Assembly (NCBI GenBank): GCA_028712375.1
Contig: JAQTQG010000006.1
Span: forward strand, 1 to 61,826
Direction of reading: 5' to 3'
DNA: 61,826 bases
Source of the DNA: Candidatus Omnitrophota bacterium
GTDB lineage: Bacteria > Omnitrophota > Gorgyraeia > Gygaellales > Profunditerraquicolaceae
Part shown: piece by piece, positions 11,532 through 58,496 of the stretch
How the letters are laid out: each line of letters begins with the position of its first letter
Position numbering within the stretch: the stretch's first letter is position 1
Position numbers and translations under genes: made by a program
Notes under the pieces: model-generated
What the model was told of the DNA's origin: nothing
The model's input: only the letters and a program-made list of their open reading frames with translations
Database searches by the model: none

Positions 11532-13268
11532 TTATGATTTTGTTAATTTTATCTGCGGGGCGAATAAATCGTAGAGCTCTTTTTCGTTTCGCATTATCTG
11601 CTCTGATTTGGCAATAACTATAGAATAGGGATTTTTAATAAAATACACCAAATCCGCGGCGTGGATCGCAGATAATCTATGCGAAACTATAATAAAGGTG
11701 GTTTTACTATAAGCCTGCCGTATATTCTTAATAATCTGCTCTTCGCTCTCTGAATCCATAGAAGACATTGCCTCATCAAGAATAAGTATTTTAGGATTTT
11801 TAATCAAAGCGCGCGCAATAGCAATTTTTTGTTTTTGCCCCTCCGAAAGTTTACAGCCATTTTCGCCGATTATAGTTGAATATTTATTAGGTAAATTATT
11901 AATAAATTGATCTGCCCCGGTCATCCGGGCCGCCCAGACAACCTGATCATTGCTTACTCTCTCCAGAGGGTATTTTATATTGTTAAAAATAGAATCCTCC
12001 CATAAAAATGGTTCCTGCATCGCAATACCAATCTGGCTTCTTAGAGAGATAAACTTAAATTCTTTTATATTGTGCCCATCAATCGATATTCCGCCCTGCC
12101 AAGGATCATACAGCCTCAATAAAAGATTCAGCAGCGTGGTTTTACCGCTGCCGGATCGTCCAGCAATTGCCACGCAGCTTCCCGGTTCAATAACAAAACT
12201 CAACTTCTCCAACACCGGGATTGATTTATATCCGAAACTTAAATTTTCAACCACAATACGGCCCTCATCCATAAGTATCTCTTGAGCCTGGGCAGATTCA
12301 ACAACCTTGGCTTCTTCGGATATCAACTGTTCAACCCTGCCGCAAGAAATAAACCCCCGGATAGCAACGCGCCAAAAAGAAGCAAAATTCTCCACTAATC
12401 CGAATAGCTGGCTTAAATAAACAATAACTACCGTTAAGGTCCCCAACGTCAACCTACCCCTGATCACCTGATATCCACCGTAAAAAACAATACCGCCGAT
12501 AACCACTTTGCTTATAGCATTGCCGGCGAATACCGCTAAAATATCCAATTTGGAATTCTTTAACTGAAGATGCATATTGATCAACCAATTGTGTAAATAC
12601 TTTTTTATCTCCGCGCCATCCGAACCGAAAGCTTTAACCAGTTTAATATGTGAAAAGAGCTCCGTTAATTTTTTAAACAAAAATTCGGTGTTCTTTATAA
12701 TATCTTCCCCGATATTTTTTAATTTTCTATTAAAATAATACTGGGACACCCCCATAACTAACATAATAAACCAGCTTAGCAATGTTATGCGCCAGTCAAG
12801 ATAAAACAAGACCAGGCAAGTAAATAATATGCCTCCTAAGATGGTGATGATTTTCCGAGGAACCGCCGTAATTAATTCAGCAATCCTTTCTGAATCGTAA
12901 GTTATTTTATACACATGTTCCCCGGTTGATTTACCTTGGAACCAATTTATGGAAAGTTTCTCAAAACATACGAATAAATCCCTGGTCAATTCTACGGTCA
13001 CCTTAAACTTTACAACTCTTTCCAAATAATCCGCTGCGGCTTTCACTACGCCGCTGACAACAAAAACCAACGCGCTGGCAGAGAAAAATATAACAAAATT
13101 TTTCAAATCTTTCCCGATAATTGCTTTATCCATAATCAGCTTGCCGAAATAAGGATTTACCAGGGCAAACAAAACGGTCAAGCTGCTTAGAATTAAAATC
13201 AACAGTTCGCTTTTCCAATAAGGCAAAAGGTACCTGGCAAATTTAAAAAATAATTTATTTTTTATCAT
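11532..13268 (-). CDS. ABC exporter, fused permease-ATPase (type I exporter), no N-terminal C39 peptidase domain
   Basis: Walker A GRSGSGKTT, signature LSEGQKQKIAIARAL, Walker B ILILDEA, and a six-TM N-terminal half. Confidence 0.9.
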   Translation of the reverse strand: MIKNKLFFKFARYLLPYWKSELLILILSSLTVLFALVNPYFGKLIMDKAIIGKDLKNFVIFFSASALVFVVSGVVKAAADYLERVVKFKVTVELTRDLFVCFEKLSINWFQGKSTGEHVYKITYDSERIAELITAVPRKIITILGGILFTCLVLFYLDWRITLLSWFIMLVMGVSQYYFNRKLKNIGEDIIKNTEFLFKKLTELFSHIKLVKAFGSDGAEIKKYLHNWLINMHLQLKNSKLDILAVFAGNAISKVVIGGIVFYGGYQVIRGRLTLGTLTVVIVYLSQLFGLVENFASFWRVAIRGFISCGRVEQLISEEAKVVESAQAQEILMDEGRIVVENLSFGYKSIPVLEKLSFVIEPGSCVAIAGRSGSGKTTLLNLLLRLYDPWQGGISIDGHNIKEFKFISLRSQIGIAMQEPFLWEDSIFNNIKYPLERVSNDQVVWAARMTGADQFINNLPNKYSTIIGENGCKLSEGQKQKIAIARALIKNPKILILDEAMSSMDSESEEQIIKNIRQAYSKTTFIIVSHRLSAIHAADLVYFIKNPYSIVIAKSEQIMRNEKELYDLFAPQIKLTKS

Positions 13269-13277: not shown

Positions 13278-13718
13278 TTACCTCTTGCCTAAATCAGAAT
13301 CCGGACTCTGCCGAAAACTATATTTACTATTTATTGTTGCTGCAAAAAAATAATAAACCGCCAACCAATAAAAAAGAAACTTATTATAAAACCCCATTTT
13401 TTTATTATCTATAGCGATAATATTATCGGCCCTGTTGACCGCGACGACTTTGCCGATGACCCAATCATATTCCACCGGCTGTTCAATAAAAAGATCCCGG
13501 TCGCCTTTGGTTAAAAACACAATCCGCTTTTGATTTCTAATTATTTTTATTAACCGATGCGCAAATAAATTTCCTCCCCGGTTGAAAGCAACGACATCCC
13601 CGGGATCAAAATCCACATCCCGGGCAGATTTAATGACCAGCGCATCATTTGGACAAATAACCGGCATCATACAATTACCTTGGGATTTTTTATATATATA
13701 TTTTTCTTGCGGGATCAT
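13278..13718 (-). CDS. SipW/Sec11-type (S26B-like) signal-peptidase homologue with Cys in place of the nucleophile Ser
   Basis: GNCMMP aligns with SGSMEP. Also GDVVAF, the His box LFAHRLI, LTKGDRD (compare TKGDNN), VIGKVV, and a C-terminal TM helix. Confidence 0.6.
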   Translation of the reverse strand: MIPQEKYIYKKSQGNCMMPVICPNDALVIKSARDVDFDPGDVVAFNRGGNLFAHRLIKIIRNQKRIVFLTKGDRDLFIEQPVEYDWVIGKVVAVNRADNIIAIDNKKMGFYNKFLFYWLAVYYFFAATINSKYSFRQSPDSDLGKR

Positions 13719-13766: not shown

Positions 13767-14708
13767 TTACTCCTGGGCAAAATCAAAGAAATTAGAATTT
13801 GACCTGCCGGGCGCGCGCCGGGGATCATTAGAAAAAATAAATGCATTCTGCTGACGATTTAGCTGGTCACAAACACCGCAATAAGGGAATTTATCAAAAT
13901 TTGTTTTTTTATGCCCCTGCCTTAATTCTTCATACAAGCTACTGTGCATCACCTCTTCTATGCTTTGATCTCTTAAATTGCCCAAAACCAGGTAACCATT
14001 ATAATCAAAACAGCAGGGAACAACTACCCCGTCCCATTGCACTTGCAAAGGCCCACACCATGGCCTGCCGCAACTTTTAGGCTTAACCGCCTGAGCCCTG
14101 TAAACTCTTCCGTCAATATAGTTATGCGGCCGCCAAATTTCAACAAAATCAGCTGTTATCCAGAAATTTTCGAAAGCCGCCGCCTGATGGGCATTTTCAT
14201 CCAAAACAAGAAAAGAAAGCGAAATTTCCGGATGGGGCAAATGCCGAAGTTTTTTTTGTTCTATTAACTTTTGGACGTTCGCTAAAGTAACATTAAAAGA
14301 TAATCCGCGATGCACTAACTCATAAACATCGCTAGTCAATCCATAAAAACTTATCCTTAGGCCGTCTAGGCCTGAAGTAATTATATTATCAGACATCTGC
14401 GAGTTAAGTAAAGAGGCGTTGGTAATGGTATTTACGCTTAAGCCTCTATCTTTAATATATTTTATGCGCTCTATAAAATAAGGATCCAGCAGGGGTTCGC
14501 CGAATCCTCCTAAAAAAATATGTTTTACACCGCAAGACACAGCATTATCAACAATTTTTTTAAAAAGCGGCCATTCCATTATACCCTGCGCCCGGGTTAA
14601 TTTATCCCGCGGGCACATAATACAGCTGCTGTTACATAAATTTGTATTTTCAATCCTTACTTCTGGATTTGTTAGTTTCATCTTTTTTTTCACCTGATAA
14701 AAAAACAT
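13767..14708 (-). CDS. radical SAM protein with SPASM/twitch-like C-terminal Cys cluster
   Basis: CNSSCIMC (CX3CX2C) near the N-terminus. C-terminal CGRPWCGPLQVQWDGVVVPCCFDYNG...PYCGVCDQ. Confidence 0.8.
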   Translation of the reverse strand: MFFYQVKKKMKLTNPEVRIENTNLCNSSCIMCPRDKLTRAQGIMEWPLFKKIVDNAVSCGVKHIFLGGFGEPLLDPYFIERIKYIKDRGLSVNTITNASLLNSQMSDNIITSGLDGLRISFYGLTSDVYELVHRGLSFNVTLANVQKLIEQKKLRHLPHPEISLSFLVLDENAHQAAAFENFWITADFVEIWRPHNYIDGRVYRAQAVKPKSCGRPWCGPLQVQWDGVVVPCCFDYNGYLVLGNLRDQSIEEVMHSSLYEELRQGHKKTNFDKFPYCGVCDQLNRQQNAFIFSNDPRRAPGRSNSNFFDFAQE

Positions 14709-16236
14709 CTGCTTTTTCGGCTATGCGGCCCACTGTAATACTGTCAAAACACAACCTTTTATCAAACAAACAATACTCCGCGTTACAAGGTGAACATGCT
14801 ATATTCGGAACAACTGAAGCATGCGAAGGAATGCTGTGCCCCGGAAGGCCCGGGCTAGTGGAACCATAAATAACAACACAATTAGTACGCAGCGCCACCG
14901 CAATTTCAGAAGCTCCCGAATCATTAACAATTAAAAGCTTTGCTTTCTCCAATAAAGCCGCATAAAGATCCACGGTTAATAAGCCGGCTAGATTCCAATG
15001 TTTTTTCTTCATCAAGCCAGACATCGCATAATCAACATCGGTGTTGTAACTGTTCAAAGGCTCAGCTATAATTACTTTTGCTTGATAGGTATCCACCAGA
15101 TAATCTCCGATCTCTGCAAATCTAGCAACTGCCCAACGCTTATGCTGCACTGTCCCGGGAGTAACTACCACAATCAAACTATTGCTATCTATGCCCTGGT
15201 GGTTAAGAATACTCTTGATCTTTTCCCGAGAAAGATCATTTACCATCAAACCTGGCAAATTTACCGATACCGGAATATTACAGCGAAGAAGAAAGTCAAT
15301 ATAAGTATCTCCGGTCTTAACTGGCAGCGATCTCTCGGGCTCCTTAAAGCCACCCGCACAGGCAGGCTCGGCAATATTAAACACCTTTCTCCCTTTAATA
15401 AATTTGTCAAATGCCGGCAATTCGGATTTTTTCCCTCCCAATAAATACACCGCCTGAAATTTGAACCTTAAAACATCGGGGAATACCTTAAAAATGTTAT
15501 GCAGCCATTTTTTTTTGTTGAAAAACACCCAATTGCTAACAAAAGGAATACACTTTACGAGATCTTTATAATTATCCGGGATAATTGCAGTTATCCTGGT
15601 CTGCGGGAAATTTGCCCGAAGGTTCTGCAGAACCGGTAAAGTAATAATAAAATCTCCTAATCCTGCAGTAGTCCGGTATGCAACGCAAATACCATCATTT
15701 ATACAGGCATAACGCAAGCGCCATAAATTAGCCCCCCGCATAAACAGTTCAACTAAATAATTTCTTAATTTAAGACAAGCATAAAAAGCTTTTCTAATAA
15801 AATACCTGGTCAGTTTATGAAAAAGAATAAAAAACAATGCCACCGGTAATTTTGCCCCCTTGATCTTCATAGAATACTTCTTATTCCAACGGTTAACAAT
15901 AACCAACTCTCTTTCGCTCCGCAATAGCAATAACGAAGCTAAAAGTAAGCTAGCGGCCCAAATTTTTGGCATGTTGATATACGGTAAAAAAACCACCTTA
16001 AAGCGGACATCGCGGATACGTTTAAAAGCTAATAATAAATCACGGAAATTATCCAAACAACCCAAAACATTGCATTTAGCAGTATTCCAGGCCAACGCAT
16101 TTTTTTTACCGAGAGCAATAATCGAAATGTCGGAAAATTGTATGCCGGGATAATAAAATTGCACATAAGCAAGCGCGCATTTCCTATAGGTCGCGTAATC
16201 CGCAGTTAATATAAGTATTTTATCCGAAGTAGGCAT
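14650..16236 (-). CDS. family 9 glycosyltransferase (heptosyltransferase-like) with ~180-aa N-terminal extension
   Basis: GLGDFIITLPVLQNLRANFP and C-terminal NDSGASEIAVAL motifs, typical of GT9. Confidence 0.7.
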   Translation of the reverse strand: MPTSDKILILTADYATYRKCALAYVQFYYPGIQFSDISIIALGKKNALAWNTAKCNVLGCLDNFRDLLLAFKRIRDVRFKVVFLPYINMPKIWAASLLLASLLLLRSERELVIVNRWNKKYSMKIKGAKLPVALFFILFHKLTRYFIRKAFYACLKLRNYLVELFMRGANLWRLRYACINDGICVAYRTTAGLGDFIITLPVLQNLRANFPQTRITAIIPDNYKDLVKCIPFVSNWVFFNKKKWLHNIFKVFPDVLRFKFQAVYLLGGKKSELPAFDKFIKGRKVFNIAEPACAGGFKEPERSLPVKTGDTYIDFLLRCNIPVSVNLPGLMVNDLSREKIKSILNHQGIDSNSLIVVVTPGTVQHKRWAVARFAEIGDYLVDTYQAKVIIAEPLNSYNTDVDYAMSGLMKKKHWNLAGLLTVDLYAALLEKAKLLIVNDSGASEIAVALRTNCVVIYGSTSPGLPGHSIPSHASVVPNIACSPCNAEYCLFDKRLCFDSITVGRIAEKADVFLSGEKKDETNKSRSKD

Positions 16237-16243: not shown

Positions 16244-17722
16244 TCAAATATTCCCCAGCCCAAGCTGCTTTATTTCCCCGATTACCATTTCCGGAGTTAA
16301 GTCCTGCATACATTTTCTCTCAGGCAAGATACAGCGCCCCGTACAAGGACTGCATTGACAAGCGGTATTCCTGATAACTTTATAAGCAGGATGATTATAC
16401 CCACTGACCACCGGATCAGTAGCGCCATAAACCACTGCAGCCGGAGTCCCCACGGCAAATGCAATATGCGCCGGGCCGGAATCATTACACACCACCAGTT
16501 TGGATTTTTTAATTACGGCAACTAATTGACTTTGGCTCAAGCTGCCGGTCAAATTTAAACAATTTCCTTCAAGCTGACTGGCAATTGCCCGGGATTTTAA
16601 CAACTCCACAGTATCGGATGCTCCGGAAATAACAATTTTATACTTGTAGTGCTGGGCAATAAACCGGGCGACCTGCAAATACCCTTGCGCCAACCATGTG
16701 CGGACATCATCTCTTCCGGGGACAATCACGGCAAAGGCCGTATCCGGACCAATTCCCTGTTTAGACAAAAGTTTTTCTGTATCCTGCAAAACCTCAGGCG
16801 GGACACTTAAGGCCGTTCCTAATCCATCTGTTTTTAAACCATTCTGCATTAAATAGTTCAAAGAAAGCCACCTCAGCCCGAGGCTGCCATAAGTTTTTGC
16901 TTCACGCACTATCCTAAAATTATATATTTTTGCTTTATTAAACAGTAATTTAAGATAGCCGATAAACGGAGATTCCCCCAACACAAAAATGTTTTTAATA
17001 TTTTTTTGATACAGTTGGCGCAAGACACGGGCGTCCACACAACCGGAATCCTCTTTTGGAGTAAAATACCAATAATCCACTCCCGGGATACACCTACTAA
17101 TATCTTTAAATTTACCCCAACTCAAACAATTAACCTTGTGCCCGGGAAAATTAATATTAACCGCCCTTATATAGGGGGTAGTTGCTGTTAAATCCCCAAT
17201 TCCTAATACACCTAAAATAACCAAATTTTCATTTGCGGTAGAAATTGATTGCCTGCGGACAAACATGCTCTGCAATAGAAGATACAAATACGCCGACCTT
17301 ACAGAGAATAATTTATTCCAGCAAGACTTCAGAGTATTTATTAAATCGTTTCTCCAGGCATTTATCAGACCCCCGGGGGAATAAATAAGGCCTCCTAAAT
17401 CCGGGACCCAAATTACTTTGACTTTAAACAAGCTTAAAAATAAAAATAATAAAAAATTTATAGAAGTTTTAATTATTTTTTTATCCGATAAAACAAATAT
17501 AATTACAGAATATTTATTGCGCAGGAGGGATAAAATACCATTCAGATGCCCAACGATCAAACGGCATTTACTGACAGACCAGACGATTTTTTCTTTTTTT
17601 CCACAAAGTATAACGGTTAACTCCGCCTCAGGGGCTATCTGCCGGGCGATCGGTATAATACATTTCCTGTAAACATTATAACTACTGATAAAAGCTGCTA
17701 AGCTCGGCTTGTTTTGGCTCAT
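16244..17722 (-). CDS. family 9 glycosyltransferase, paralogue of the downstream gene, same N-terminal extension
   Basis: GIGDLTATTPYIRAVNINFP and CNDSGPAHIAFAVG. The N-terminus is alignable with that of 14650..16236. ATGA overlap with the upstream gene. Confidence 0.7.
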   Translation of the reverse strand: MSQNKPSLAAFISSYNVYRKCIIPIARQIAPEAELTVILCGKKEKIVWSVSKCRLIVGHLNGILSLLRNKYSVIIFVLSDKKIIKTSINFLLFLFLSLFKVKVIWVPDLGGLIYSPGGLINAWRNDLINTLKSCWNKLFSVRSAYLYLLLQSMFVRRQSISTANENLVILGVLGIGDLTATTPYIRAVNINFPGHKVNCLSWGKFKDISRCIPGVDYWYFTPKEDSGCVDARVLRQLYQKNIKNIFVLGESPFIGYLKLLFNKAKIYNFRIVREAKTYGSLGLRWLSLNYLMQNGLKTDGLGTALSVPPEVLQDTEKLLSKQGIGPDTAFAVIVPGRDDVRTWLAQGYLQVARFIAQHYKYKIVISGASDTVELLKSRAIASQLEGNCLNLTGSLSQSQLVAVIKKSKLVVCNDSGPAHIAFAVGTPAAVVYGATDPVVSGYNHPAYKVIRNTACQCSPCTGRCILPERKCMQDLTPEMVIGEIKQLGLGNI

Positions 17723-18612
17723 TTAGCTGCAAGCGCCCTTACAAAATTTACCGCTGTGTTATCAGGCACAAACTCCAGTTCATAACAAGGGATATTTTTT
17801 ACAATCTGTCCGCATAAATCTATAGATTTTTGATAAGCGCAATTATCCCACAGCGGAGCATGCGATCTTGAAATAAGTAAAGATACCGCCTGGCTGCTGG
17901 AAACACGGGTAGCCTTATTCGCCTTTCCATGTTTTAGAAAAAAGATGCCCTTCAGCGGCGCCCCGGATGGAGATACATTTCTAAATTTACCGAACCACGG
18001 AGTCCCGAAAATCCAGAACTTTTTATTGATTTTCCGGATAATCACTTTATCGTCATTAAGTAACATTGCCCCGCTTTTTATCCATAAATTAGCGGTGGTT
18101 GTTTTTCCGTATCCGGAATGCCCTAAAAATATGAACCCTACCCCTTTATCCACCACTCCGCAGGAATGAAAAAGAACGGCGTTCTTGGTATAAAGCAACG
18201 AAGAAACTAAAATCGGCCCCATCAAAGGAAGCAAAGGATTGATTTCCGGAGTTTTCCCCAGCCGATTGCGGTCGAATATTTCTCCATAGCTGAAGTTTTT
18301 ATTAAAAACTGCGGCATGGTATGGCTGGGGTAAATATTTAATTTCGGGAGCGCTAAATAATAAAATTTTTTTATTCTCAGCCTGGTGCAAACCCCAATAA
18401 TATCCATCAAAGATTTTTTGGCTGTTATTTAAAGATAGAAACTTTTTATCCACGTCTCTGCATTTAATCACCAGCCTGATGTCCGGCCGGGACATAGAAC
18501 CCACGATAAACCTTTTTAGCATATGGATATTTTCAAGCTTGCTTAAAGAATTCTGAGATTCTAATGAAAATTTAATACCCCCGATTTTAAAACAGATTTT
18601 GCGCTTTACCAT
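17719..18612 (-). CDS. HPr-kinase-like P-loop protein (HprK C-terminal-domain homologue)
   Basis: P-loop FLGHSGYGKTT. The start is moved to ATG 18612 (MVKRKICFKIGG), which overlaps the upstream stop by 7 nt. Confidence 0.6.
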   Translation of the reverse strand: MVKRKICFKIGGIKFSLESQNSLSKLENIHMLKRFIVGSMSRPDIRLVIKCRDVDKKFLSLNNSQKIFDGYYWGLHQAENKKILLFSAPEIKYLPQPYHAAVFNKNFSYGEIFDRNRLGKTPEINPLLPLMGPILVSSLLYTKNAVLFHSCGVVDKGVGFIFLGHSGYGKTTTANLWIKSGAMLLNDDKVIIRKINKKFWIFGTPWFGKFRNVSPSGAPLKGIFFLKHGKANKATRVSSSQAVSLLISRSHAPLWDNCAYQKSIDLCGQIVKNIPCYELEFVPDNTAVNFVRALAAK

Positions 18613-20711
18613 ACATTTCCTTTGGTTAAGATTAATTGATTTGTAAAAAATAATGACTCCACATATTCTTCTGTGCCCAGGCTTTTTCTTGCCCGACAAT
18701 ATTCTTTTGCTGTTATTTTATCAAGAGAAATGCATTTTGAACACACATTGTTTGCCGGGCAATATTTACACCCTCGCTCTGCTTGGATTTTCTGCATGAG
18801 AGCAGATATCCTGCTGGATAAAACCTCTACCCCCTGCGCTGTCCGGCCAACCACTGTGCCGGAAAAACAAGTGCAGACCTTACCGCTTTCCCCTAACACC
18901 AGACGGCTTAAGTTGCTTAACGGACATTTCCTGTGCCAACGGCAACTGTCCAGAATTATTATATTTTTATTTTTTCCTTTTTTGAATAAAACCAGTTGGT
19001 TTTTCAGCGCAAGCATATCTTGATTATCGGCAATCTTATAAATACACCCGGAGTCAACAGAAGAATAATCTGCCAAATGCTTAAAATTAAGAGATCTTTT
19101 AAAACTATCCAATACTCTGTTTTCCAGGCCGGCAACACTTAAGCAACTGTAGCGGGGATGTAAAAAACTGGCCGTATTCACCAGCAAACTTAAATGCCCG
19201 GTTCTGCGGCCGGATAATAAAATTTCCACATTCTTGCCAAAAATAAAGCTGGACCCCAAGGCTAAGTTATTTTCCATCCATTGCACAGGAAATTTTTTAG
19301 CCGCCACAACCACATCAATATTTCTTTTTCTATTTTCGGTCCCGCCATATATACCCGTCATGTTCCTTAAAAAAACCTGCCCCGTAGCGTTAAAAAAGTT
19401 CAATGATTCTAAGTCATTGTTTAGGCGGGGAATCTTATACACATTATATGCATAATTAACGGGATTAAGTACCGGATCAGAAACAACTTGCTTAAACTTA
19501 AAAGGCGGGATTCTTATCCCCCATTGCAAATGCTCTTTGGCGATTTGCGTACCAGAAAATATGTTCAAAAAATTATGCACATAAGTAGTAGGATTTAATT
19601 CCCTGAGGAAATTGATCGTTTTAATCGCTTTCTCATACGTATCACCAGGCAGGCCGAAAATAACACTTATATTGACATGAAATCCAAGTTTTTTAGCAGA
19701 ATAGGTAATCTTTTTTACCTTACCGATAAAATTCTTTTCCGCAGTAAAAATACCAGTTTTCTCCAATGCCTGCCCTTTGATTTTCTTTATGTTAAACAAA
19801 ACATCAACAGATGCGCTCTCCAGCCCGAATTTAATATGCTCAAAACCTGCCGCGTGCAATTCCTTTAAAATACCTTCATCAATAAAATCCGGACGGGTCA
19901 GGAATGAAAATCTTAACTTTAATTTATGCGCCGATATTTTGTCACAAATCCGGCTAACCCGCGTTTTGTTAAAAGTAAATATATCATCCTGTATTGCTAT
20001 TTTTCGATGATGATAATCGTGAATTTTGGAAGAAATTAACTGGAATTCCCGGATAATACGCCGGGTAGAATGATACCGGATAGTATGCCGGGACATCGCG
20101 GCAAAATTACAATAACTGCAATTAAATATACAGCCCCTGCTGGTTAACAGGGGAATTTCACTATTTACCCTCAAGACATCCGCTGGATCCAGAACCCCGC
20201 TAAGGTAAGGAGAGGGAATTGCATCTAAATTTTTTATTAAAGGCCTGCCTGGATTCCTGATAATTTTATTATTTAAACGATAAGTAATACCTTTTATTTT
20301 TGATAAATTTTTTCTTGCGCCTTGAGACAATAACTCCAACACAGTAAGCTCGCCTTCGCCTCTTACGCAAAAATCTAGAGCTTTTGTATCCTGCATAATA
20401 TTCATATCCGAAAATGTAGCCGTGGGGCCGCCGGCCAGGGTTAGAACTGTGGGAGTTTTTTGCTTAATTGCAGAGGTAATTTTTTTAACCAGGAAATAAT
20501 TAGCGTCAAAACAGGTAAACCCGGCAAAAACCGGACGTAAATCAAGGATCCGATCGGTTAATTCGCTGACGCTTAATTGATTACTGCAGATGAATTGCGA
20601 AGCATTTATTCCATTTTTTTTCAAATAGGCAACAATATAACTGGCACCTAGATGATATTGGCTGCTGCCGTCTTGCTGAAAAAAAATAAAAACACATTTG
20701 TTTCCTCTCAT
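18606..20711 (-). CDS. B12-binding-domain radical SAM enzyme (class B-like) with Cys-rich C-terminal extension
   Basis: Flavodoxin-like N-terminal region, SRGCIFNCSYCNF (CX3CX2C), and a ~250-aa C-terminal extension ending CKYCPANNVCSKCISL. Confidence 0.75.
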   Translation of the reverse strand: MRGNKCVFIFFQQDGSSQYHLGASYIVAYLKKNGINASQFICSNQLSVSELTDRILDLRPVFAGFTCFDANYFLVKKITSAIKQKTPTVLTLAGGPTATFSDMNIMQDTKALDFCVRGEGELTVLELLSQGARKNLSKIKGITYRLNNKIIRNPGRPLIKNLDAIPSPYLSGVLDPADVLRVNSEIPLLTSRGCIFNCSYCNFAAMSRHTIRYHSTRRIIREFQLISSKIHDYHHRKIAIQDDIFTFNKTRVSRICDKISAHKLKLRFSFLTRPDFIDEGILKELHAAGFEHIKFGLESASVDVLFNIKKIKGQALEKTGIFTAEKNFIGKVKKITYSAKKLGFHVNISVIFGLPGDTYEKAIKTINFLRELNPTTYVHNFLNIFSGTQIAKEHLQWGIRIPPFKFKQVVSDPVLNPVNYAYNVYKIPRLNNDLESLNFFNATGQVFLRNMTGIYGGTENRKRNIDVVVAAKKFPVQWMENNLALGSSFIFGKNVEILLSGRRTGHLSLLVNTASFLHPRYSCLSVAGLENRVLDSFKRSLNFKHLADYSSVDSGCIYKIADNQDMLALKNQLVLFKKGKNKNIIILDSCRWHRKCPLSNLSRLVLGESGKVCTCFSGTVVGRTAQGVEVLSSRISALMQKIQAERGCKYCPANNVCSKCISLDKITAKEYCRARKSLGTEEYVESLFFTNQLILTKGNVW

Positions 20712-20810
20712 ATTTAAGGTGCCTGATTAGTGCGAGGAAAAATTAAGATAGGCTGATAAGCTTATCCATTTAACAAGAAAAGGCGATTATTAAAAAATTC
20801 TAAGCCGGAT

Positions 20811-20975
20811 TTAACCCGAAGCAGTACTGCATATACTGGATGAACAAGTACATGATGGCGTTGACGGGCCATTACCAGAAGAGGGTTTCTGGCATCCGGT
20901 TAAAACTGCTTCTTCGGCAATTAATTTAACCCTGGCAAGTTTTGGTTTCTCATAACGCGCTTTGGTCTTCTTCAT
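20811..20975 (-). CDS. 54-aa candidate precursor peptide: MKKTKARYEKPKLARVKLIAEEAVLTGCQKPSSGNGPSTPSCTCSSSICSTASG
   Basis: Hand-translated; it is below the ORF-track size cutoff. A strong SD (GGGGGAGAA) lies 2 nt before the ATG and 12 nt after the preceding rSAM stop. Basic leader, Cys/Ser/Thr-rich tail. Confidence 0.7.
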   Translation of the reverse strand: MKKTKARYEKPKLARVKLIAEEAVLTGCQKPSSGNGPSTPSCTCSSSICSTASG

Positions 20976-20987
20976 ATTCTCCCCCTG

Positions 20988-22064
20988 CTAAGCCATCAAA
21001 TTTCTTATTTTTTTAAACCTTAGTTTTGCTGTTTTACACATAAATGCGACGGGAGTGCCGATTGCGGTTTTTTCGATCAGATTCCACCCGGGGCAACATC
21101 CGCAAAGTACGTATAATGAACAATTATAGCATTTATTAGTCCTATTTTTCAACTTAATTTTGCTTGCATAAACCCTGGGCAGCTCTTTAAAAAATCCCTC
21201 CCGGAAGGAACCTTGAAGTATATTATAATTGGGCAGGCGGGACAAAACACAACCCCCCAAACGGCCAGAGGGGTCAATGTTGAACATCCCCTTACCAGCT
21301 GAACACATATATACTGAATCAGCCGGTTTTTGCCCGTAATATATCTTGTAAAATTTCTTCCATTCTTGCAGCCTTTTTTTATTGCTCAAGTCATATCGCA
21401 CTATTTCCTCCGGAGTCAACCTATACCCGCAGGGTTCAATCGAACCATCCAGATCCGAAGTGATCATCGGGTCATAGCGAAATGTGGTTTTAAACTTATC
21501 TGCTAACCGCTCTATTGCTTTAAACTCATGTTTATTTAATGTCATTAGCGCTGTTTTAACTTTAAATTTAATACCATACTTATGCAATAGTTTTATGCCA
21601 TTAAAACATTTCTCAAATGAACCGTTAACCCTGGTAATGCTTTCATAGGTTTTTTTAGTAACACCATAAATAGAAATTTCGATACCGAAAGGCGGATATC
21701 TGTGCAATAAATCAGCCATCCTCCGGTCGATTAGCGTCCCGTTGCTCAGCAACGTTATTAAAAAACCTTTACTTTTGGCATACAGGTAAATTTTTTTAAA
21801 ATCCCTCCTAATCATCGCTTCTCCGCCGGTCAAGGCTAGCCAGAGACAACCGGACGCAGCAAGCTGGTCCAAGACGCTGCAGACTTCCCGGAATGACATT
21901 TCTTTGCTTGCTTTATTCCTCTTGCCGATGTAACAATGCACGCACTTTAAATTACATTTGTAAGTAAGGTCTATCTGCCCTTGAATAGGAATATTTTTAT
22001 TAACGGTTTTATTAAAAATCCCCTTATTAAATATATTGTAAGGCAACACGCAGATATTACTCAT
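20988..22064 (-). CDS. radical SAM/SPASM peptide maturase paralogue 5 (subtype A)
   Basis: CNLKCVHCY, GCLWLALTGGEA, C-terminal CSAGKGMFNIDPSGRLGGC...CYNCSLYVLCGCCPG. ATGA overlap with the upstream gene. Confidence 0.85.
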   Translation of the reverse strand: MSNICVLPYNIFNKGIFNKTVNKNIPIQGQIDLTYKCNLKCVHCYIGKRNKASKEMSFREVCSVLDQLAASGCLWLALTGGEAMIRRDFKKIYLYAKSKGFLITLLSNGTLIDRRMADLLHRYPPFGIEISIYGVTKKTYESITRVNGSFEKCFNGIKLLHKYGIKFKVKTALMTLNKHEFKAIERLADKFKTTFRYDPMITSDLDGSIEPCGYRLTPEEIVRYDLSNKKRLQEWKKFYKIYYGQKPADSVYMCSAGKGMFNIDPSGRLGGCVLSRLPNYNILQGSFREGFFKELPRVYASKIKLKNRTNKCYNCSLYVLCGCCPGWNLIEKTAIGTPVAFMCKTAKLRFKKIRNLMA

Positions 22065-23176
22065 TGCTTCTCACCATTCTCTTTGCGCAACCTGGCTATT
22101 TTACAATAATAATTTTTTATCTTTGTATACCCTTTGGCGGAATCAGGATTATCCAAAAGGTTAAAACAAATACCGCAATAGGCAAGATAGGCGCATTTTT
22201 TACAAAAACAATCATTTTGGTCTCTTTCTTCTGCAAGTTTTTTTAAAAAATCCTGCCAACAAGCAGTAATTCCGCGCTTGACCAGATTATATTTCTGTTT
22301 TATGCACGGAAAATACCGATTTACGTCCAAATCCCCGCAAGGAGTAATGATCATCCCTTTTAAAGCAGAATTAAGCTGGTCCAGTTTTTGGCAATAATTT
22401 GTTGTCGCTATACCCCGGCGCTCATCTTCTTTAATCTTTCTGTAGAACTCTTTAAGCGTTCTACTTCTCGACTGCCCATACTCATTCTTTTCCACCTGCA
22501 AAACATCCTTAACCGTAGCCAAACAGGATTCAATGCTATCCAGGCAGGTATCATGAAGAGGGGGGAATAAAACCGGATTGCACATAAAACGTATCCCTCT
22601 GCTTATGGCAAAATCTTTAACCCGGCTAATCTGGTCTTTGTTTTGCCTGAATAACGGGGTTTTTATCCCTATTCTCACGCCATTCTTTAAAAGAAAATTT
22701 ATTCCCGCCAAACATCTATTAAATGAACCGGCCACCTGAGTAATCTCTTCATAAATCCTTCTGTCGGTAGCATACAGCGATATCTGTATCTCAAAAGGAG
22801 GGTTCTTTTTGAAAAATTCAGCGGCGGCAAAATCAATTAAAGCAGCATTAGTATATATGATAATTAAGAAACCTTTCTTTTTTGCGTAACGATAAATTTT
22901 AAAAAAATCTCTGTGCGCAAGCGGTTCTCCGCCGGAAAGAACCAGCCATAAAACCCCCGCATTGGCTAATTTATCCAATATTTTATAAATATTTTTTAAT
23001 TTTAACTCTCTTTTATCTATCTTGGCGGTAAGATGTTCATCCTCAATATAACAATGGATGCATTTATAATTACAGCGGTGGGTAATTTCCAATGCGCTTA
23101 CTTTCGGCAAGGCATATTTGTCCCTTTCAAAGAACTTCGTATAAAATGAAGGGTAATCTAACTCCCGGATGATCAT
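22061..23176 (-). CDS. radical SAM/SPASM peptide maturase paralogue 4 (subtype B)
   Basis: CNYKCIHCY, GVLWLVLSGGEP, C-terminal ITPCGDLDVNRYFPC...CFCKKCAYLAYCGIC. ATGA overlap. Confidence 0.85.
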   Translation of the reverse strand: MIIRELDYPSFYTKFFERDKYALPKVSALEITHRCNYKCIHCYIEDEHLTAKIDKRELKLKNIYKILDKLANAGVLWLVLSGGEPLAHRDFFKIYRYAKKKGFLIIIYTNAALIDFAAAEFFKKNPPFEIQISLYATDRRIYEEITQVAGSFNRCLAGINFLLKNGVRIGIKTPLFRQNKDQISRVKDFAISRGIRFMCNPVLFPPLHDTCLDSIESCLATVKDVLQVEKNEYGQSRSRTLKEFYRKIKEDERRGIATTNYCQKLDQLNSALKGMIITPCGDLDVNRYFPCIKQKYNLVKRGITACWQDFLKKLAEERDQNDCFCKKCAYLAYCGICFNLLDNPDSAKGYTKIKNYYCKIARLRKENGEKQ

Positions 23177-24225
23177 CTAAAATGCTCCTCTAACGCCTTA
23201 AGCCTGGCCCGAGTCACTTGGCAATGATAATCTCGAAAAACACTCCCCTGGCGGCTCAGCACGCTATGCGAAGCGCATTGGTAGCAAAAACGGAAGATTT
23301 CACATTCTTTACAAACACAGTCAAAAGAATCAACCTGTTGTTCTGCCTGTGCTAAATATTGTTTCCAAGCCGATGAAAATTTTATTTTCGTAAGATCAAA
23401 TACCAGCGGTATACAGGGGAATCTCCGCGTATTATTGAACTCCCCAAAAGCATTAATGATAAAGGCGCGGTGCACTCTTTCAAAAAGGCATTTTTTTATA
23501 CTCTTTCCCTCTTTATAACAAAAATAGTCCTGTTTCCAGCGGTCCAACAATCCATCGCTTAGTTCAACCTTAACCAACTCTTCCGCAGACAACCCCTGCT
23601 TCATTACGCGATCTTCATGAATAATTGTAGGGTCTACGTAAAGGTAATAGTCAAAATCAATGCCTAATTTTCTGGCATAATCTTTTGCGATAAATAATTC
23701 ATGCCGGTTTACTTTTAATAACGGCATCCTCAACATACCAATCCTTAAATCTGACTTCAATAACAGGCTTAGTCCGTTCCTAAAGCGGCTAAACGATCCC
23801 TTAACCCCGGAAACTTTTTCATACACATTTTCGGTAACACCTAAAATGGATAATTGAACTTGAAGCGGCGGATTTTTCTCAAGGCGAGTAATAAGTTTTT
23901 TATCTAATAATGTAGCATTGGTTAAGAGCGTAATGACAAACCCCATTTTTTTAGCATAAAGATAAATATCGAGAAAGTCTTTTCTAATTAAAGGTTCACC
24001 TCCGGTGATCGTCAGCCACAAACAGCCGGCATCCCGGATATCTTTAAGAATTTTAAAAACTGAAGCAGTACTTAATTCTTTTTTATCCGAAAAATCGCAG
24101 CTTGTTGAACAGTGGATACAGCGATAATTGCACTTATAAGTTATTTCAAAACTGCCTTTATAGGGCAACCCGCGGGAAATTATTCTTTGCTCATTAATGG
24201 CGCGGAAAAAAGATTTTTTAACCAT
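23173..24225 (-). CDS. radical SAM/SPASM peptide maturase paralogue 3 (subtype B)
   Basis: CNYRCIHCS, GCLWLTITGGEP, C-terminal CVCKECEIFRFCYQC. The track start at 24246 is TTG; ATG 24225 (MVKKSFF) overlaps the upstream stop by 8 nt and is preferred. Confidence 0.8.
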   Translation of the reverse strand: MVKKSFFRAINEQRIISRGLPYKGSFEITYKCNYRCIHCSTSCDFSDKKELSTASVFKILKDIRDAGCLWLTITGGEPLIRKDFLDIYLYAKKMGFVITLLTNATLLDKKLITRLEKNPPLQVQLSILGVTENVYEKVSGVKGSFSRFRNGLSLLLKSDLRIGMLRMPLLKVNRHELFIAKDYARKLGIDFDYYLYVDPTIIHEDRVMKQGLSAEELVKVELSDGLLDRWKQDYFCYKEGKSIKKCLFERVHRAFIINAFGEFNNTRRFPCIPLVFDLTKIKFSSAWKQYLAQAEQQVDSFDCVCKECEIFRFCYQCASHSVLSRQGSVFRDYHCQVTRARLKALEEHFR

Positions 24226-25264
24226 GTTTTCCAAAGCTCTTCGCAAAATATTTCGCCCTAAGTTTTGCTACCTGGCAATAATAATCTAAATATTTTCTTT
24301 GATCATTCTTCTGTTTTAAAATGGCTGAACACTTATCGCAAAATGCAAAGAAGGAGCAACCGCTGCACTCCCTGACGCTGGAATAGTTCTCCAAAGACTT
24401 TCTGTTTAAAATCTTCCAGCCGTCCCGGAAAGTACCTGAAATTAAACTATACCCGGGTGTACGCGGATACATTTTGCACATCATAAGCTTACCGCAAGAA
24501 TCAATCATAAACGACTTGCGCCCGGCATCACAGGTATATTTCCTTTTCCCCGGCTGTTTATTACAAGACCCTTCAAATTGCTTCTGCCATAATTGACGCC
24601 TCAGGCTGCGTTGAGCTAAGTCTAGCGCAACAACTTTATCCGGAGCCAAAGCATACTTAAAAACCTCTCCGCTGCCATCAATCCCCGGCCTAATCACCGG
24701 GTCAAATTTAAAAAAGAAGTTTTTCGCCCGGGCCAGTTGGCCTATTTTTTTAATCTCCTGAACATTTAATGTCGTCACGGTGGTTTTTATTTCAGTACGG
24801 ACACCGTATCTAAACAAAAGATCGATACCCGCCATGCATTTTTTATAGGAGCCTTTAACTCCGGTTATTTTTTCATAAACTTCTTTGGTCGCCCCGTAAA
24901 CAGAGACCTCAACAAGATAAGGTGGTAAACCTCTAAACAGTTTTGCTATTTTATCATTAATCAAGGTGCCATTAGTCAGTATCTTAACCAGCAAGCCTTT
25001 ACTTTTAGCGTATCTGTATATTTCAGAGAAGTCCTTCCTTAATAATGGTTCGCCGCCGGTAAAATGCAGCAAAATACAACCTGCCCGGACAATTTGGTCA
25101 AATATTTTGCATACTGTTTCATAAGACAATTCTTTAGCATAAAAATCATTCTTTAGATAACAATGCCGGCACTTTAGGTTACAATGTGAGGTTAATTCTA
25201 TACCGCCCTTAATCGGTAAAAAGTTACTTTTAAACAGTTTGGTTATTTTTTCTTCGAATAACAT
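24218..25264 (-). CDS. radical SAM/SPASM peptide maturase paralogue 2 (subtype A)
   Basis: CNLKCRHCY, GCILLHFTGGEP, C-terminal CDAGRKSFMIDSCGKLMMC...CSGCSFFAFCDKC. Confidence 0.85.
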   Translation of the reverse strand: MLFEEKITKLFKSNFLPIKGGIELTSHCNLKCRHCYLKNDFYAKELSYETVCKIFDQIVRAGCILLHFTGGEPLLRKDFSEIYRYAKSKGLLVKILTNGTLINDKIAKLFRGLPPYLVEVSVYGATKEVYEKITGVKGSYKKCMAGIDLLFRYGVRTEIKTTVTTLNVQEIKKIGQLARAKNFFFKFDPVIRPGIDGSGEVFKYALAPDKVVALDLAQRSLRRQLWQKQFEGSCNKQPGKRKYTCDAGRKSFMIDSCGKLMMCKMYPRTPGYSLISGTFRDGWKILNRKSLENYSSVRECSGCSFFAFCDKCSAILKQKNDQRKYLDYYCQVAKLRAKYFAKSFGKHG

Positions 25265-26369
25265 TATTTTTAGCCCTGAAATAGTTAGCGCGCAAAGCCG
25301 CAGTTTCGCAATAATGGCTCTTCATCGCCTCAACTAGGTTAGCTCCGGATGCCTGAGGCTGTTTAAAAGCTGCTGCGCCTAAACAATAATCACAAAAATA
25401 CCGTATTTTACAATTTAAACATTTTTTATTATCCTCAAGAATTGTATCGCTTATTTTTTGCAATTTTAACCAAGCCTCTTTTATCCTGCCACCCGCTAAA
25501 CTGCTGCCTGGCACTCTAGCTAACATGCACATGCTCATCGATCCATCTGCACAAACACAAAAAGCGTTTTGACCGGCGCCGCACTCATCAAATATGTATT
25601 CTTTTTCCAACCGGCTTTTCTTTACGCTAATCTTATTTTTAAAATACTCTAATTTTTCCTTAAATTGCATTTCTGCATTTACTACTTCTTTTGGTTTTAA
25701 TCTATAGCTAAAGGGTACAAGCGAGCCATCCAAGCCGGGATAAATAGCTGCATCAAACCTAAACGGCACATCTAGTTCTTTAGCCCACTTTCTAGCCATT
25801 CCTAACTCATGCTTGTTGATAGTCAACAGGGGCATTTTAAGGCTAAGCGGTATTTTGTGTGAAATTAATAATCCCAGCCCTTTTTTAAAATTTTCGAATG
25901 ACCCTGCTACTTTGGTAACCGCCTCATAAGTTTTTCTGGTACACCCGTAAATTGAAACCTCCACAAAAAGCGGCCGCCAGACAGTAAGCATCTTTGCTAA
26001 CTGCGGGGTAACAAGAGTAGCGTTGGAAAAAATTACAATTAAAAAACCCTTTTTCTTGGCATATAAGTAAATGTCCGGGAAATCTTTTCGCAAAAATGGT
26101 TCCCCGCCGGTAAAAATCAACCAAAGACAACCGCAAGAAGCAATTTTATCAAGAAGCCTTAAAATTTTATTTTTTGGCATGCGGGCTGTTTTAGAAGCAG
26201 ACTTGGGAATATAGCAATGCACGCACTTTAAATTACATTTTAAAGTCGGCTCAAAAAAACACTTCAGAGGTACATCTTTATTGTGAGTTTTACTGTGCAG
26301 GCGGGCTCTAAAAACATTATGCAGAAGTTCTTGCATTTTCAATGCCGGGGTCCTTCTGACAACCCTCAC
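25230..26369 (-). CDS. radical SAM/SPASM peptide maturase paralogue 1 (subtype A)
   Basis: CNLKCVHCY, GCLWLIFTGGEP, C-terminal CGAGQNAFCVCADGSMSMC...CLNCKIRYFCDYC. The track start is GTG at 26369 (GTGA overlap with pqqD-like). An alternative ATG at 26336 fits the paralogue N-terminal lengths better. Confidence 0.8.
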   Translation of the reverse strand: MRVVRRTPALKMQELLHNVFRARLHSKTHNKDVPLKCFFEPTLKCNLKCVHCYIPKSASKTARMPKNKILRLLDKIASCGCLWLIFTGGEPFLRKDFPDIYLYAKKKGFLIVIFSNATLVTPQLAKMLTVWRPLFVEVSIYGCTRKTYEAVTKVAGSFENFKKGLGLLISHKIPLSLKMPLLTINKHELGMARKWAKELDVPFRFDAAIYPGLDGSLVPFSYRLKPKEVVNAEMQFKEKLEYFKNKISVKKSRLEKEYIFDECGAGQNAFCVCADGSMSMCMLARVPGSSLAGGRIKEAWLKLQKISDTILEDNKKCLNCKIRYFCDYCLGAAAFKQPQASGANLVEAMKSHYCETAALRANYFRAKNNVIRRKNNQTV

Positions 26370-26647
26370 TTAATACTTTCAATTTCTTCCAGTTGAGCTA
26401 TAAAATCGTTTAAATCTTTCTCCGCTGTTGTCTCGGCTACTGCATACTCTTGGATAATCATTTTTTTTATTTTTTCAACATTAGTCTTACCGTCAATTTT
26501 TTCCCAAATCCAGGCAGCTAGCGGAGAAAGCGTATAAATACAATCGACCTCCTCAGTAGTTTTAACCATGGGCACCAGCAAAGCCTCATCATCTATCATT
26601 CTAAAAACAAACGAAGAATTTTTTTTATAGCACTTTTTCATATCCAT
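26366..26647 (-). CDS. PqqD-family protein (RiPP recognition element-type peptide chaperone)
   Basis: About 93 aa with FRMIDDEALLV...YTLSPLAAWIWEKIDGKTNVEKI...EY. ATG 26647 lies 5 nt after GGAGG. The track start (TTG 26692) is actually part of a -35 box. Confidence 0.75.
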   Translation of the reverse strand: MDMKKCYKKNSSFVFRMIDDEALLVPMVKTTEEVDCIYTLSPLAAWIWEKIDGKTNVEKIKKMIIQEYAVAETTAEKDLNDFIAQLEEIESIK

Positions 26648-26663
26648 AATTCCCTCCTTTTTT

Positions 26664-26692
26664 AGTATAGCTCCCGCAAAAAACCCTGTCAA
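26664..26692 (-). promoter_or_regulatory. near-consensus sigma70-type promoter of the maturation operon
   Basis: -35 TTGACA (26692..26687), 17-nt spacer, -10 TATACT (26669..26664), about 20 nt upstream of the pqqD-like SD. Confidence 0.55.
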
Positions 26693-26792: not shown

Positions 26793-27968
26793 CTAACAAC
26801 TTATGTTTTTCAAAATTATATACGGTATCCGCAGTTTATATATTACCTTTGTTTTAAAGCTATATGGACCAAGACCGTAAAACCTTGCAAATTGCTCCTG
26901 CGGAATATTTAATAAGTAATTAATCGGTTCATAGTAATTGTCAAAAAATAAAAAATGCCCATAAAGATACATTTTTTTATCCCGGGCAGATCCAGTATTC
27001 CTAAAAAATGTTTTGTTTTTAATAAATCTTTCAATGATTTTACGTTTGCGTGGTGAAATTTCCAATTCCTGCACAACACTAGGCGGAAATTTTACATCAA
27101 AAAAAAGCTTAGCTTGGGTTAAACAAAAAAATAAAGTTGAACCGATCCGGCTCCTGCGGCATTCTTTCAATACATAGTCCCAATCCATACTGTTTTTATA
27201 TTCATTGAGCAAAATTGCAATATCGCATACATTCTTAATGCAGAGGATTTTACCAAAATGCCTAAGATGCAGAGCTAAAGAAAACAATTCATCTTCCCGG
27301 GAAAGATAAGCAAGCGGTGCTTGACCACTAATTGCATGGTTTTGGATACGCTGCCATAATAATGGCAGCTGTTTATAACTTCTTCGATAATCTAAAGCCC
27401 AATGAACCTCTACGGTAACCGGATAACTTGATTGGGACTCTTTAGTATAGACAAAATGATACTGGTGATTACGCCAGTAGCTTTGGCTAAACCCGTGGAG
27501 ATCTTTTTTGTATCCCAAAGAAAGCATTACATCCTCTGCCGCTGCTAGATCAGTTTCTTCTATCAGGATGTCAATGTCGGAACTCTGCCTGCCCGGGCGG
27601 TTTTTATATAATGTGTTAATTAACGACATCCCCTTCAACGGAACGGAGTTAATATTCTTTTCTTTTAATGCAATAGTTACATCCCAAAAGGCATTCTTTA
27701 AATTCTCGGCATAGAAAATATTGGCATAAAAATTATTACGTAAATAGTTTTCAACTTCTCCGGGGAGTTTTAAATTGTTTTTTTTAAAAAAAAGGTGGGC
27801 AAACACCAGCAATTCATGATAACGCAGGTATTCCAATAAAATATCGTATTCTATTTCGCCATAGCCCAGGTGGTTTTTGAAAGTATTTTCTTCCCTATAG
27901 ACAACGTCTCTTGCTATATCAAGCAACAACCCGGTCTCGGCGCTATCTGAAGTGCTGAATTCTAACAT
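26793..27968 (-). CDS. nucleotidyltransferase-fold protein (uncharacterised NTP_transf_5/PF14907-like)
   Basis: 391 aa with GRQSSDIDILIEE (a G-S...D-x-D polymerase-beta-type NTase motif). This family often neighbours PqqD/HprK-like genes. Confidence 0.55.
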   Translation of the reverse strand: MLEFSTSDSAETGLLLDIARDVVYREENTFKNHLGYGEIEYDILLEYLRYHELLVFAHLFFKKNNLKLPGEVENYLRNNFYANIFYAENLKNAFWDVTIALKEKNINSVPLKGMSLINTLYKNRPGRQSSDIDILIEETDLAAAEDVMLSLGYKKDLHGFSQSYWRNHQYHFVYTKESQSSYPVTVEVHWALDYRRSYKQLPLLWQRIQNHAISGQAPLAYLSREDELFSLALHLRHFGKILCIKNVCDIAILLNEYKNSMDWDYVLKECRRSRIGSTLFFCLTQAKLFFDVKFPPSVVQELEISPRKRKIIERFIKNKTFFRNTGSARDKKMYLYGHFLFFDNYYEPINYLLNIPQEQFARFYGLGPYSFKTKVIYKLRIPYIILKNISC

Positions 27969-28294: not shown

Positions 28295-28327
28295 AAAATA
28301 AAAAGCCGGAATATACCCGGCTTTTTA
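28295..28327 (-). terminator. intrinsic terminator downstream of the small lipoprotein gene
   Basis: Minus strand AGCCGG-GTATATT-CCGGCT followed by TTTTATTTTTAT. Confidence 0.6.
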
Positions 28328-28363
28328 TAAACCCAAACCAATCAACTATTAACCTATAGAATA

Positions 28364-28564: not shown

Positions 28565-28677
28565 TATTACCCCCTTTTGCCTAAGTTCAAACTCCATTTA
28601 TATTCAACATATATATCTTTTATTATAATAGCAGATTCTATAAATTTAGCAAGCTTCGCGTAAAATCAGCCTGCTGT

Positions 28678-58468: not shown

Positions 58469-58496
58469 TAACTTATTGTTGCTTTATATAAAATCT

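Follow-up and report, generated by a model that had tools for sequence, protein, structure and literature searches.

A Short Gene Next to Tandem Radical-SAM Genes in an Omnitrophota Bacterium Encodes a Member of a Large, as yet Unnamed Family of Putative RiPP Precursors

Introduction

In the genome of a Candidatus Omnitrophota bacterium the gap between a row of five radical-SAM (rSAM) genes and a gene for a B12-binding radical-SAM protein holds a minus-strand open reading frame (ORF) of only 54 codons, and the question raised by this locus is whether the ORF is a gene and, if so, what is made of its product. A sequence-only reading had taken it as the precursor of a RiPP with a leader of the YxxPxL type and with tailoring by a kinase and a nucleotidyltransferase (NTase), a proposal that is supported by the comparisons reported here, leader binding and tailoring being inferred. 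The whole stretch of DNA that was analyzed, 61,826 nucleotides in length, is referred to as the window.

The ORF is a true gene, the product of which serves as precursor of a modified peptide natural product. That it encodes a RiPP precursor of a large unnamed family, matured by the series of steps proposed below, is given a probability of roughly 0.8, the chemistry of cross-linking, phosphorylation and glycosylation being inferred. Translation of the peptide, binding of its leader and every one of its modifications are inferences made without experiments or expression data.

The ORF and Its Start Signals

The ORF occupies positions 20811..20975 of the minus strand, from an ATG at 20975 to a TAA at 20811-20813, and its translation is MKKTKARYEKPKLARVKLIAEEAVLTGCQKPSSGNGPSTPSCTCSSSICSTASG (54 aa); position, strand and length agree with the original description, as does the distance of 12 nt between the stop codon of the fifth radical-SAM gene (rSAM5, 20988-22064) and the ATG. 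A leader of residues 1-27 (20895-20975, minus strand) and a core of residues 28-54 (20814-20894, minus strand), the latter beginning at an invariant Cys28, are proposed, with a boundary that is inferred and not demonstrated. The leader holds Y8-E-K-P11-K-L13 and, exactly as counted before, 16 of the last 27 residues are Ser (9), Cys (4) or Thr (3).

The SD-like string GGGGGAGAA that had been pointed out before the ORF is present at 20977..20985 (minus strand), 1 nt upstream of the ATG. It occurs once in the whole window, but since 0.42 copies are expected by chance the string alone is not significant; its GGAG core lies only 3 nt from the ATG, a spacing that becomes 5 nt if GGGGG pairs with the anti-SD. 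A sigma-70 promoter-like site with an extended -10 (21123..21152, minus strand; TTGAAA, 18 nt spacer, TG-TATAAT, 11/12 matches) lies within the last part of the rSAM5 gene, some 150 nt 5' of the peptide ATG, and could possibly serve as an internal promoter for the precursor, although it is known only as a match to the consensus. The RNA 3' of the peptide gene showed no significant structure (z = 0.31), therefore no attenuator is claimed.

A gene caller predicted the peptide ORF in two public assemblies. A contig of 4377 bp from run SRR22315508 is 100% identical to positions 18729-23105 of the window, and the peptide gene was called there; the source organism was therefore present in that run.

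Evidence That the ORF Is Coding

A word-based search with the peptide alone recovered only the peptide itself, and homologues were reached via the neighboring B12-binding radical-SAM protein (B12-rSAM) and afterwards via a search with a peptide alignment. Homologues of the B12-rSAM sit in similar clusters that contain small ORFs of the same architecture, for example MKKPYSKPTVFRIKLDYQQAVLAACHGS...SS, and the alignment of these peptides, used as query, retrieved 18 further peptides. When 1.84 billion representative proteins were scanned in full with HMMER, 2,484 matched at E<=1e-3, nearly all of them 46-70 aa long. No relatives were found in a scan of viral contigs. Genome contigs scanned with the B12-rSAM alignment returned mostly generic B12-rSAMs, full-length relatives being limited to two loci (L004 and L005), neither of which holds a family peptide, and the B12-rSAM homologue closest to that of the window lies on a contig (L158) whose short length leaves no room for a precursor.

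In a leave-one-out comparison, the window peptide was withheld from a profile of 215 relatives, which was then run against the 365 ORFs of 30-120 aa in the window: the ORF scored 53.1 bits (E 4.8e-16) and the runner-up 4.2 bits. Against its nearest relatives the window peptide keeps 18 of the 21 amino acids at residues 8-28 despite 14 (L086) and 11 (L090) synonymous codon changes, which is the signature of selection on the protein. Homologous small ORFs were sought and found in syntenic clusters, their alignment displays a conserved leader followed by a variable core, and no frameshift or stop interrupts the frame in any relative examined. The reading of the ORF as a product of chance in an intergenic gap, or as a non-coding spacer, could appeal to its shortness and to a low-complexity, Ser-rich tail that might arise randomly, yet it is refuted by the profile score, the invariant positions, the synonymous divergence and the synteny across many independent metagenomic loci, and retains a negligible probability.

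A Large, Unnamed Peptide Family

Across about 2,480 representative metagenome peptides the leader follows the pattern [YW]xxPx[ILV]xx[VI]xLxxE[EQ]A[VI]Lxx and is followed by an invariant Cys. In the numbering of the window peptide, position 8 is Tyr or Trp and position 11 is Pro in 215/215 relatives, and position 13 is Ile, Val or Leu in 199/215, so that the likeness to YxxPxL noted in the single sequence is no coincidence. Val or Ile occupies position 16 in 207/215 and Leu position 18 in 167/215, positions 21-25 (E-[EQ]-A-[VI]-L) are nearly invariant among the 215, and Cys is found at position 28 in 215/215, at position 44 in 208/209 and at position 49 in 207/207. The window peptide keeps all of these positions (Y8, P11, L13, V16, L18, E21, E22, A23, V24, L25, C28, C44 and C49).

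Beyond Cys28 the peptides vary in sequence and in length (median 30 residues) and contain much Gly, Ser, Thr and Ala. Three Cys are present in 78% of the relatives and four in 18%, and the C-terminal residue is Ser in 184/204 and Thr in 16/204, together 98%. The window peptide is atypical in having four Cys and in ending ...A-S-G, with Ser in the penultimate position; it also has Gln after the first Cys, where 73% of relatives have Lys, and a Ser plus Thr share of the core of 44% versus a family average of 23%.

The family is represented by no Pfam or NCBIfam model; scans of ten family peptides against both gave nothing significant, and ten representative clusters that were looked up are all metagenomic, with names that are absent or read 'hypothetical protein'. 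No description of the peptide family was found in the open-access literature, an overlooked paper not being excluded. The family is large, so far unnamed and apparently unstudied.

Variation in gene number and setting was observed within the family. One locus carries four tandem precursor genes with different cores (L124, 2274-3511), another carries two (L002, 15419-15803), and a third has two complete cassettes in a row (L149, 4781-11282). A clear family member, MKKPYEKPELTRVILKPEEAVLAACKTNNGGGPGGSACLGPRVAPCFAGGS, lies in a phage-like replication module (L084:2002-2157 and L085:10001-10156, also L119 and L122), where its neighbors include a primase, a helicase, a UvsX-like recombinase, an exonuclease, DnaB and RuvC, and where the flanking 10 kb on both sides contain no rSAM, PqqD or ScmC gene; this peptide may be a precursor borne by a mobile element that uses the maturases of its host. 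A further orphan peptide (L153:7216-7410) is found on a 17-kb contig with no cassette genes recognized nearby.

The Operon of the Window

The ORF belongs to a long minus-strand operon that is transcribed from the 27968 side. Its first gene, preceded by a strong terminator-like hairpin and then by promoter-like sites, encodes an NTP_transf_5 nucleotidyltransferase (26793..27968; PF14907, 150 bits) and is followed by a discrete PqqD-like protein, a putative RRE (26366..26692; PF05402, 51 bits). The real start of the latter is probably the ATG at 26647, which gives 93 aa: an AGGAGG at 26653-26658 lies 5 nt upstream of it, and PqqD-like relatives measure 91-101 aa. Next come the five tandem radical-SAM genes, namely the paralogues rSAM1 (25230..26369) and rSAM2 (24218..25264), the divergent paralogues rSAM3 (23173..24246), in which one auxiliary-cluster Cys is missing and another is shifted, and rSAM4 (22061..23176), in which two are missing, and the radical-SAM/SPASM-like rSAM5 (20988..22064; PF04055), the orthologue of the enzyme of the minimal cassette described below.

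Beyond the peptide gene, and on the same minus strand, lie a B12-binding radical-SAM protein with a Cys-rich C-terminal domain (18606..20711; PF02310 and PF04055) and an HPr-kinase-like P-loop protein of the ScmC type (17719..18699; Hpr_kinase_C E 6.6e-6, below the cut-off), whose coordinates are those of the longest ORF and whose real start may be an internal Met. They are followed by a GT9 (heptosyltransferase-like) glycosyltransferase with a long N-terminal extension (16244..17722), a second GT9 enzyme (14650..16236), a further radical-SAM/SPASM enzyme (13767..14708; PF04055 and PF13186), a SipW-like (S24/S26) signal-peptidase homologue considered as putative leader peptidase (13278..13718) and an ABC exporter with fused permease and ATPase (11532..13268). 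Tandem PMT_2 (GT-C) membrane glycosyltransferases (9587-11215 and 7914-9557) complete the series, their membership in the cluster being uncertain. The window thus holds seven radical-SAM enzymes, one of the B12 type, together with two GT9 and two PMT_2 glycosyltransferases.

Several features of the surroundings were also recorded. Just upstream of the operon a 77-aa ORF (28364-28597, minus strand) encodes a lipoprotein-like signal sequence (…VFLGSGC…) and is followed by a terminator-like hairpin with a 13-bp stem (28298-28328, minus strand); the gene that precedes it (28921-29391) encodes a Leptospira-type N-terminal domain (NF047433). The half of the window that contains the cluster (1-30000) has a G+C content of about 38%, versus 42-45% in the housekeeping half (30001-61826), and a tRNA gene lies near the far end of the operon (7264-7334, minus strand); the cluster may be a horizontally acquired island. 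Elsewhere on the minus strand, a 6S RNA gene (61.7 bits) was located at 48250-48411 and three clustered tRNA genes at 58038-58568.

A Conserved Cassette in Relatives

Synteny was assessed in 68 loci obtained from a metagenome scan with the peptide motif [PA]EEAVL[AT][AG]C alone, that is, with no enzyme as query, and their ORFs were labeled by similarity to the window proteins and to the first relatives. The usual order in these loci is PqqD, radical-SAM/SPASM enzyme, one or more peptides and a ScmC-type HPr-kinase-like (HprK-like) protein, followed variably on the 3' side by the SipW-like peptidase, NTP_transf_5 and an ABC transporter. The peptide gene almost always stands between these last two enzymes: a radical-SAM gene lies directly upstream of the peptide in 23 of the 28 loci with enough upstream DNA and the ScmC/HprK-like gene directly downstream in 30 of the 37 with enough downstream DNA; a discrete PqqD gene was seen in 24 of 63 mostly short loci. 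The same gene arrangement holds in the clusters reached via the B12-rSAM.

Among the window paralogues rSAM5 is the best match for 54 of 58 cassette radical-SAM enzymes, with up to 46% identity. It is thus the cassette orthologue and the other four are extra paralogues, which makes the window operon an expanded version of a simple and widespread cassette.

The SipW-like peptidase of the relatives is either a standalone protein or fused to a GNAT acetyltransferase. In L094 (11158-12150) the gene after the HprK-like gene encodes a SipW-like signal peptidase I domain fused to GNAT, and a GNAT-labeled gene is found in the same place in L087, L095, L097, L102, L107, L117, L118 and others, in which the peptidase domain was not checked. 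The fusion suggests, by inference, that leader cleavage is coupled to N-acetylation.

The Maturation Enzymes

The five tandem radical-SAM proteins are paralogues of 26-36% identity that all keep CxxxCxxC, and the full set of C-terminal auxiliary-cluster Cys is found in three of them (rSAM1, 2 and 5); rSAM3 and rSAM4 may have one auxiliary cluster only and catalyze a different reaction. The nearest solved structure to rSAM5 is that of SkfB (6efn, E 9e-17), a sactionine synthase that forms Cys-to-C-alpha thioethers. The MftC, PapB, AlbA, StsB and SkfB models align over much of rSAM5 far below their cut-offs, the maturases reaching 60-115 bits with the SkfB, AlbA, StsB and PapB models, for which 300-850 are demanded. 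In NCBIfam, rSAM5 and a cassette radical-SAM enzyme both match MftC best, over nearly the full length, at 109-114 bits (cut-off 265). None of the radical-SAM enzymes attains the curated cut-off of a characterized maturase family. Scores so far below the curated cut-offs mean that the family is new and its chemistry unreadable, and the nature of the cross-link is a guess.

These comparisons bear on two other readings of the peptide. It could be a member of one of the defined Cys-rich radical-SAM RiPP classes, SCIFF/ranthipeptides or sactipeptides, as its core contains Cys, a radical-SAM/SPASM-like enzyme appears to work with an RRE and SkfB is the nearest structure. For the precursor, however, none of the curated precursor models gives a match even when E is relaxed to 10, the maturases stay at the low scores just given, and the invariant partner is an HprK-like protein. 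To our knowledge no such partner has been described for the sactipeptide, ranthipeptide or SCIFF classes, and no link between the two was found in the open-access literature. Membership in a known class is on this evidence unlikely.

An intracellular, unsecreted precursor of a redox cofactor or another small molecule, in the manner of PQQ or mycofactocin and with PqqD and a radical-SAM/SPASM enzyme at work near the C-terminus, would account for MftC as the best NCBIfam match and for a conserved C-terminal residue, which MftA also has. The cores of cofactor precursors are conserved, whereas in this family both the sequence and the length of the core are hypervariable; the cassettes repeatedly contain ABC exporters and signal-peptidase homologues, and tandem precursors with different cores (L124, L002 and L149) are typical of secreted RiPPs. 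The cofactor reading is given little credit, a shade less than the preceding one.

The nearest structures to the B12-rSAM, homologues of which occur in related clusters, are the C-methyltransferases TokK and CysS, and the enzyme is a putative C-methyltransferase. The HprK-like protein aligns to the HprK/P structure 1ko7 with its His, the Walker A motif GHSGYGKTT and the NDD motif, and the His, the Walker A loop and the DD motif show little or no variation among 51 family members; of 40 conserved positions, 6 do not follow the family consensus in the window protein. An HPr-kinase homologue with an intact P-loop is thus encoded near the window precursor, its Pfam and NCBIfam scores being sub-threshold. 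The SipW-like peptidase of the window has Cys in place of the catalytic Ser (GNCMMP vs GxSMxP), which is Ser in 16 of 19 relatives, and retains the conserved His-Arg and Gly-Asp motifs. Before the invariant Cys of the peptides, position -3 is Leu in 99% and position -1 is Ala, Gly, Thr or Ser in 92% of relatives. Residues -3 and -1 define the site rule of signal peptidases, and the pattern fits cleavage by the SipW-like peptidase, again by inference; cleavage at this point would place the Cys at the new N-terminus.

A Proposed Maturation Pathway

Under the preferred reading, the discrete PqqD-like protein would bind the leader through its YxxPxL-type motif and present the core to rSAM5, a binding that is inferred from the motif and its conservation. 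rSAM5, perhaps with the four extra paralogues, may then form thioethers of the sactionine or ranthionine type from the Cys thiols, and the B12-rSAM is predicted to C-methylate the peptide. The HPr-kinase-like protein would phosphorylate a Ser in or close to the C-terminal position, and the phosphate would be extended by NTP_transf_5, as in phosphorylated and phosphoglycosylated lasso peptides. The unusually Ser/Thr-rich core might be glycosylated by the GT9 enzymes and possibly by those of the PMT_2 type. Finally, the SipW-like peptidase would cut off the leader before Cys28, with Leu at -3 and Gly at -1, and the ABC transporter would export the product.

The tailoring steps are modeled on lasso systems, in which the linear precursor receives a phosphate on its C-terminal Ser from an HPr-kinase homologue, and a hexose is subsequently attached to that phosphate by a nucleotidyltransferase (PMC8498205). 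With a C-terminal Ser or Thr in 98% of the relatives and an adjoining kinase-like gene, the most economical assumption for the family as a whole is lasso-like tailoring. The case for C-terminal Ser tailoring is weaker in the window peptide because its Ser is penultimate. The analogy with paeninodin drawn from the Ser-rich tail of this one peptide is supported at the level of the family, by the adjacent HprK-like gene and the Ser/Thr end, but less so for the window peptide itself, which ends in Gly. In addition to this Gly end, the Gln after the first Cys, the departures of the kinase-like protein from its family consensus, the Cys in place of the catalytic Ser in the peptidase, the low scores of the radical-SAM enzymes with all curated maturase models and the orphan peptides of L084/L085 and L153, which lie far from maturases, count against the pathway.

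The peptide could in principle also be a lasso-peptide precursor outright, tailored as in paeninodin and pseudomycoidin. A leader motif of the same form, accessory genes for PqqD, HprK-like and NTP_transf_5 proteins as found in lasso clusters of Firmicutes and Proteobacteria, and weak, sub-threshold matches of family members to the rhodolasso and PadeA leader models (E about 0.1) would agree with this. The genes of the operon and dozens of related cassettes, however, yielded neither an Asn-synthetase-like cyclase nor a transglutaminase-like B2 protease, the window core is devoid of Asp and Glu and so lacks the acceptor that an isopeptide ring requires at core position 7-9, and the conserved partner is a radical-SAM/SPASM protein. 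Because no cyclase or B2 protease was found in the operon and the acidic acceptor is missing, the system is not a lasso system; the lasso-peptide reading is effectively refuted and keeps only a very slight chance of being correct.

Significance

As a RiPP precursor, the peptide supplies a substrate for the enzymes around it, so that a gene cluster whose purpose was unknown becomes a pathway open to testing. A single ORF gives access to some 2,500 sequence clusters of peptides without a name, and the cassette of PqqD, radical-SAM enzyme, peptide and HprK-like protein is widespread, mostly in uncultured anaerobes such as Omnitrophota. To the RiPP field the analysis offers a family profile and a minimal set of four genes for heterologous expression. 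It also offers the hypothesis that tailoring by kinase and nucleotidyltransferase, so far described for lasso peptides alone, is also the rule in another family, one based on radical-SAM enzymes. The operon of the window represents an extreme case, in which seven radical-SAM enzymes could be studied on one core of 27 residues.

More tentatively, and with the balance of opinion against it, the family might constitute a new RiPP class, possibly including the missing substrate of ScmC-type cassettes, with a chemistry unlike that of the known sacti- and ranthipeptides. Such a class could be characterized, for example, by a radical-SAM cross-link at the invariant first Cys and an obligatory phosphate-based tag on the C-terminal Ser; the product of the window, with seven radical-SAM enzymes and up to four glycosyltransferases for a 27-residue core, would rank among the most densely modified bacterial peptides, and some precursors of the class would be borne by phage-like elements without maturases.

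Comparison With Known Systems

Among the closest known systems is the SynChlorMet (SCM) cassette of TIGRFAMs/NCBIfam (ScmC, ScmD, ScmE and ScmF), with which a PqqD homologue, a PqqE-like radical-SAM/SPASM enzyme and a ScmC-type HprK-like protein are shared; HprK-like proteins of the relatives are recorded as PF27840 ScmC matches, and the best NCBIfam matches below threshold include ScmC, ScmD and ScmE. All scores remain far below the cut-offs (ScmC 38 vs 125, ScmD 35 vs 100, ScmE 91 vs 400). The window proteins reach 28 vs 100 with ScmD and 81 vs 400 with ScmE and have no match to ScmC, and the relatives reach 32-38 vs 125 with the ScmC model. SCM has two radical-SAM enzymes where the minimal cassette has one. 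As far as we know from the text of the SCM model, the SCM precursor had not been identified. Since membership is not supported by the NCBIfam cut-offs, yet PF27840 ScmC matches exist, the system is best called an SCM-like sister system.

With sacti- and ranthipeptides (SkfB, AlbA, StsB, PapB, SCIFF) it shares an RRE-dependent radical-SAM enzyme with auxiliary Fe-S clusters and a small Cys-containing core. Here, however, the RRE is encoded on its own, leader and precursor family are different, HprK-like, NTase and SipW-like partners are conserved, and thioethers have not been shown; filing under sactipeptides, ranthipeptides or SCIFF is not possible on present evidence.

The presence of many radical-SAM and B12-rSAM enzymes acting on one precursor recalls the proteusins (polytheonamide), and seven radical-SAM enzymes, one of them B12-dependent, beside one short precursor suggest very dense modification. 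In contrast to proteusins, there is no leader of the NHLP or Nif11 type, four glycosyltransferases are present, and the radical-SAM enzymes are unrelated to known epimerases by any curated model.

The tailored lasso peptides (paeninodin, the polyphosphorylated proteobacterial peptides and pseudomycoidin) share with this family an aromatic-x-x-Pro-x-aliphatic leader, a discrete PqqD-type RRE, a Walker A HPr-kinase homologue, an NTP_transf_5-type enzyme and a family-wide Ser end. They differ in that the core enzyme here is of the radical-SAM/SPASM type and not a cyclase plus B2 protease, in the conserved core Cys and the lack of an acidic acceptor, and in a likely SipW-like leader peptidase. The general logic is that of RRE-dependent radical-SAM RiPPs, in which the precursor adjoins its maturases, a conserved leader precedes a core that varies across clusters, and a PqqD-like RRE and a radical-SAM enzyme with CxxxCxxC and auxiliary Cys belong to the same operon. 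By analogy, then, the system appears to work like an RRE-dependent radical-SAM RiPP pathway to which tailoring of the lasso type, itself inferred, has been joined.
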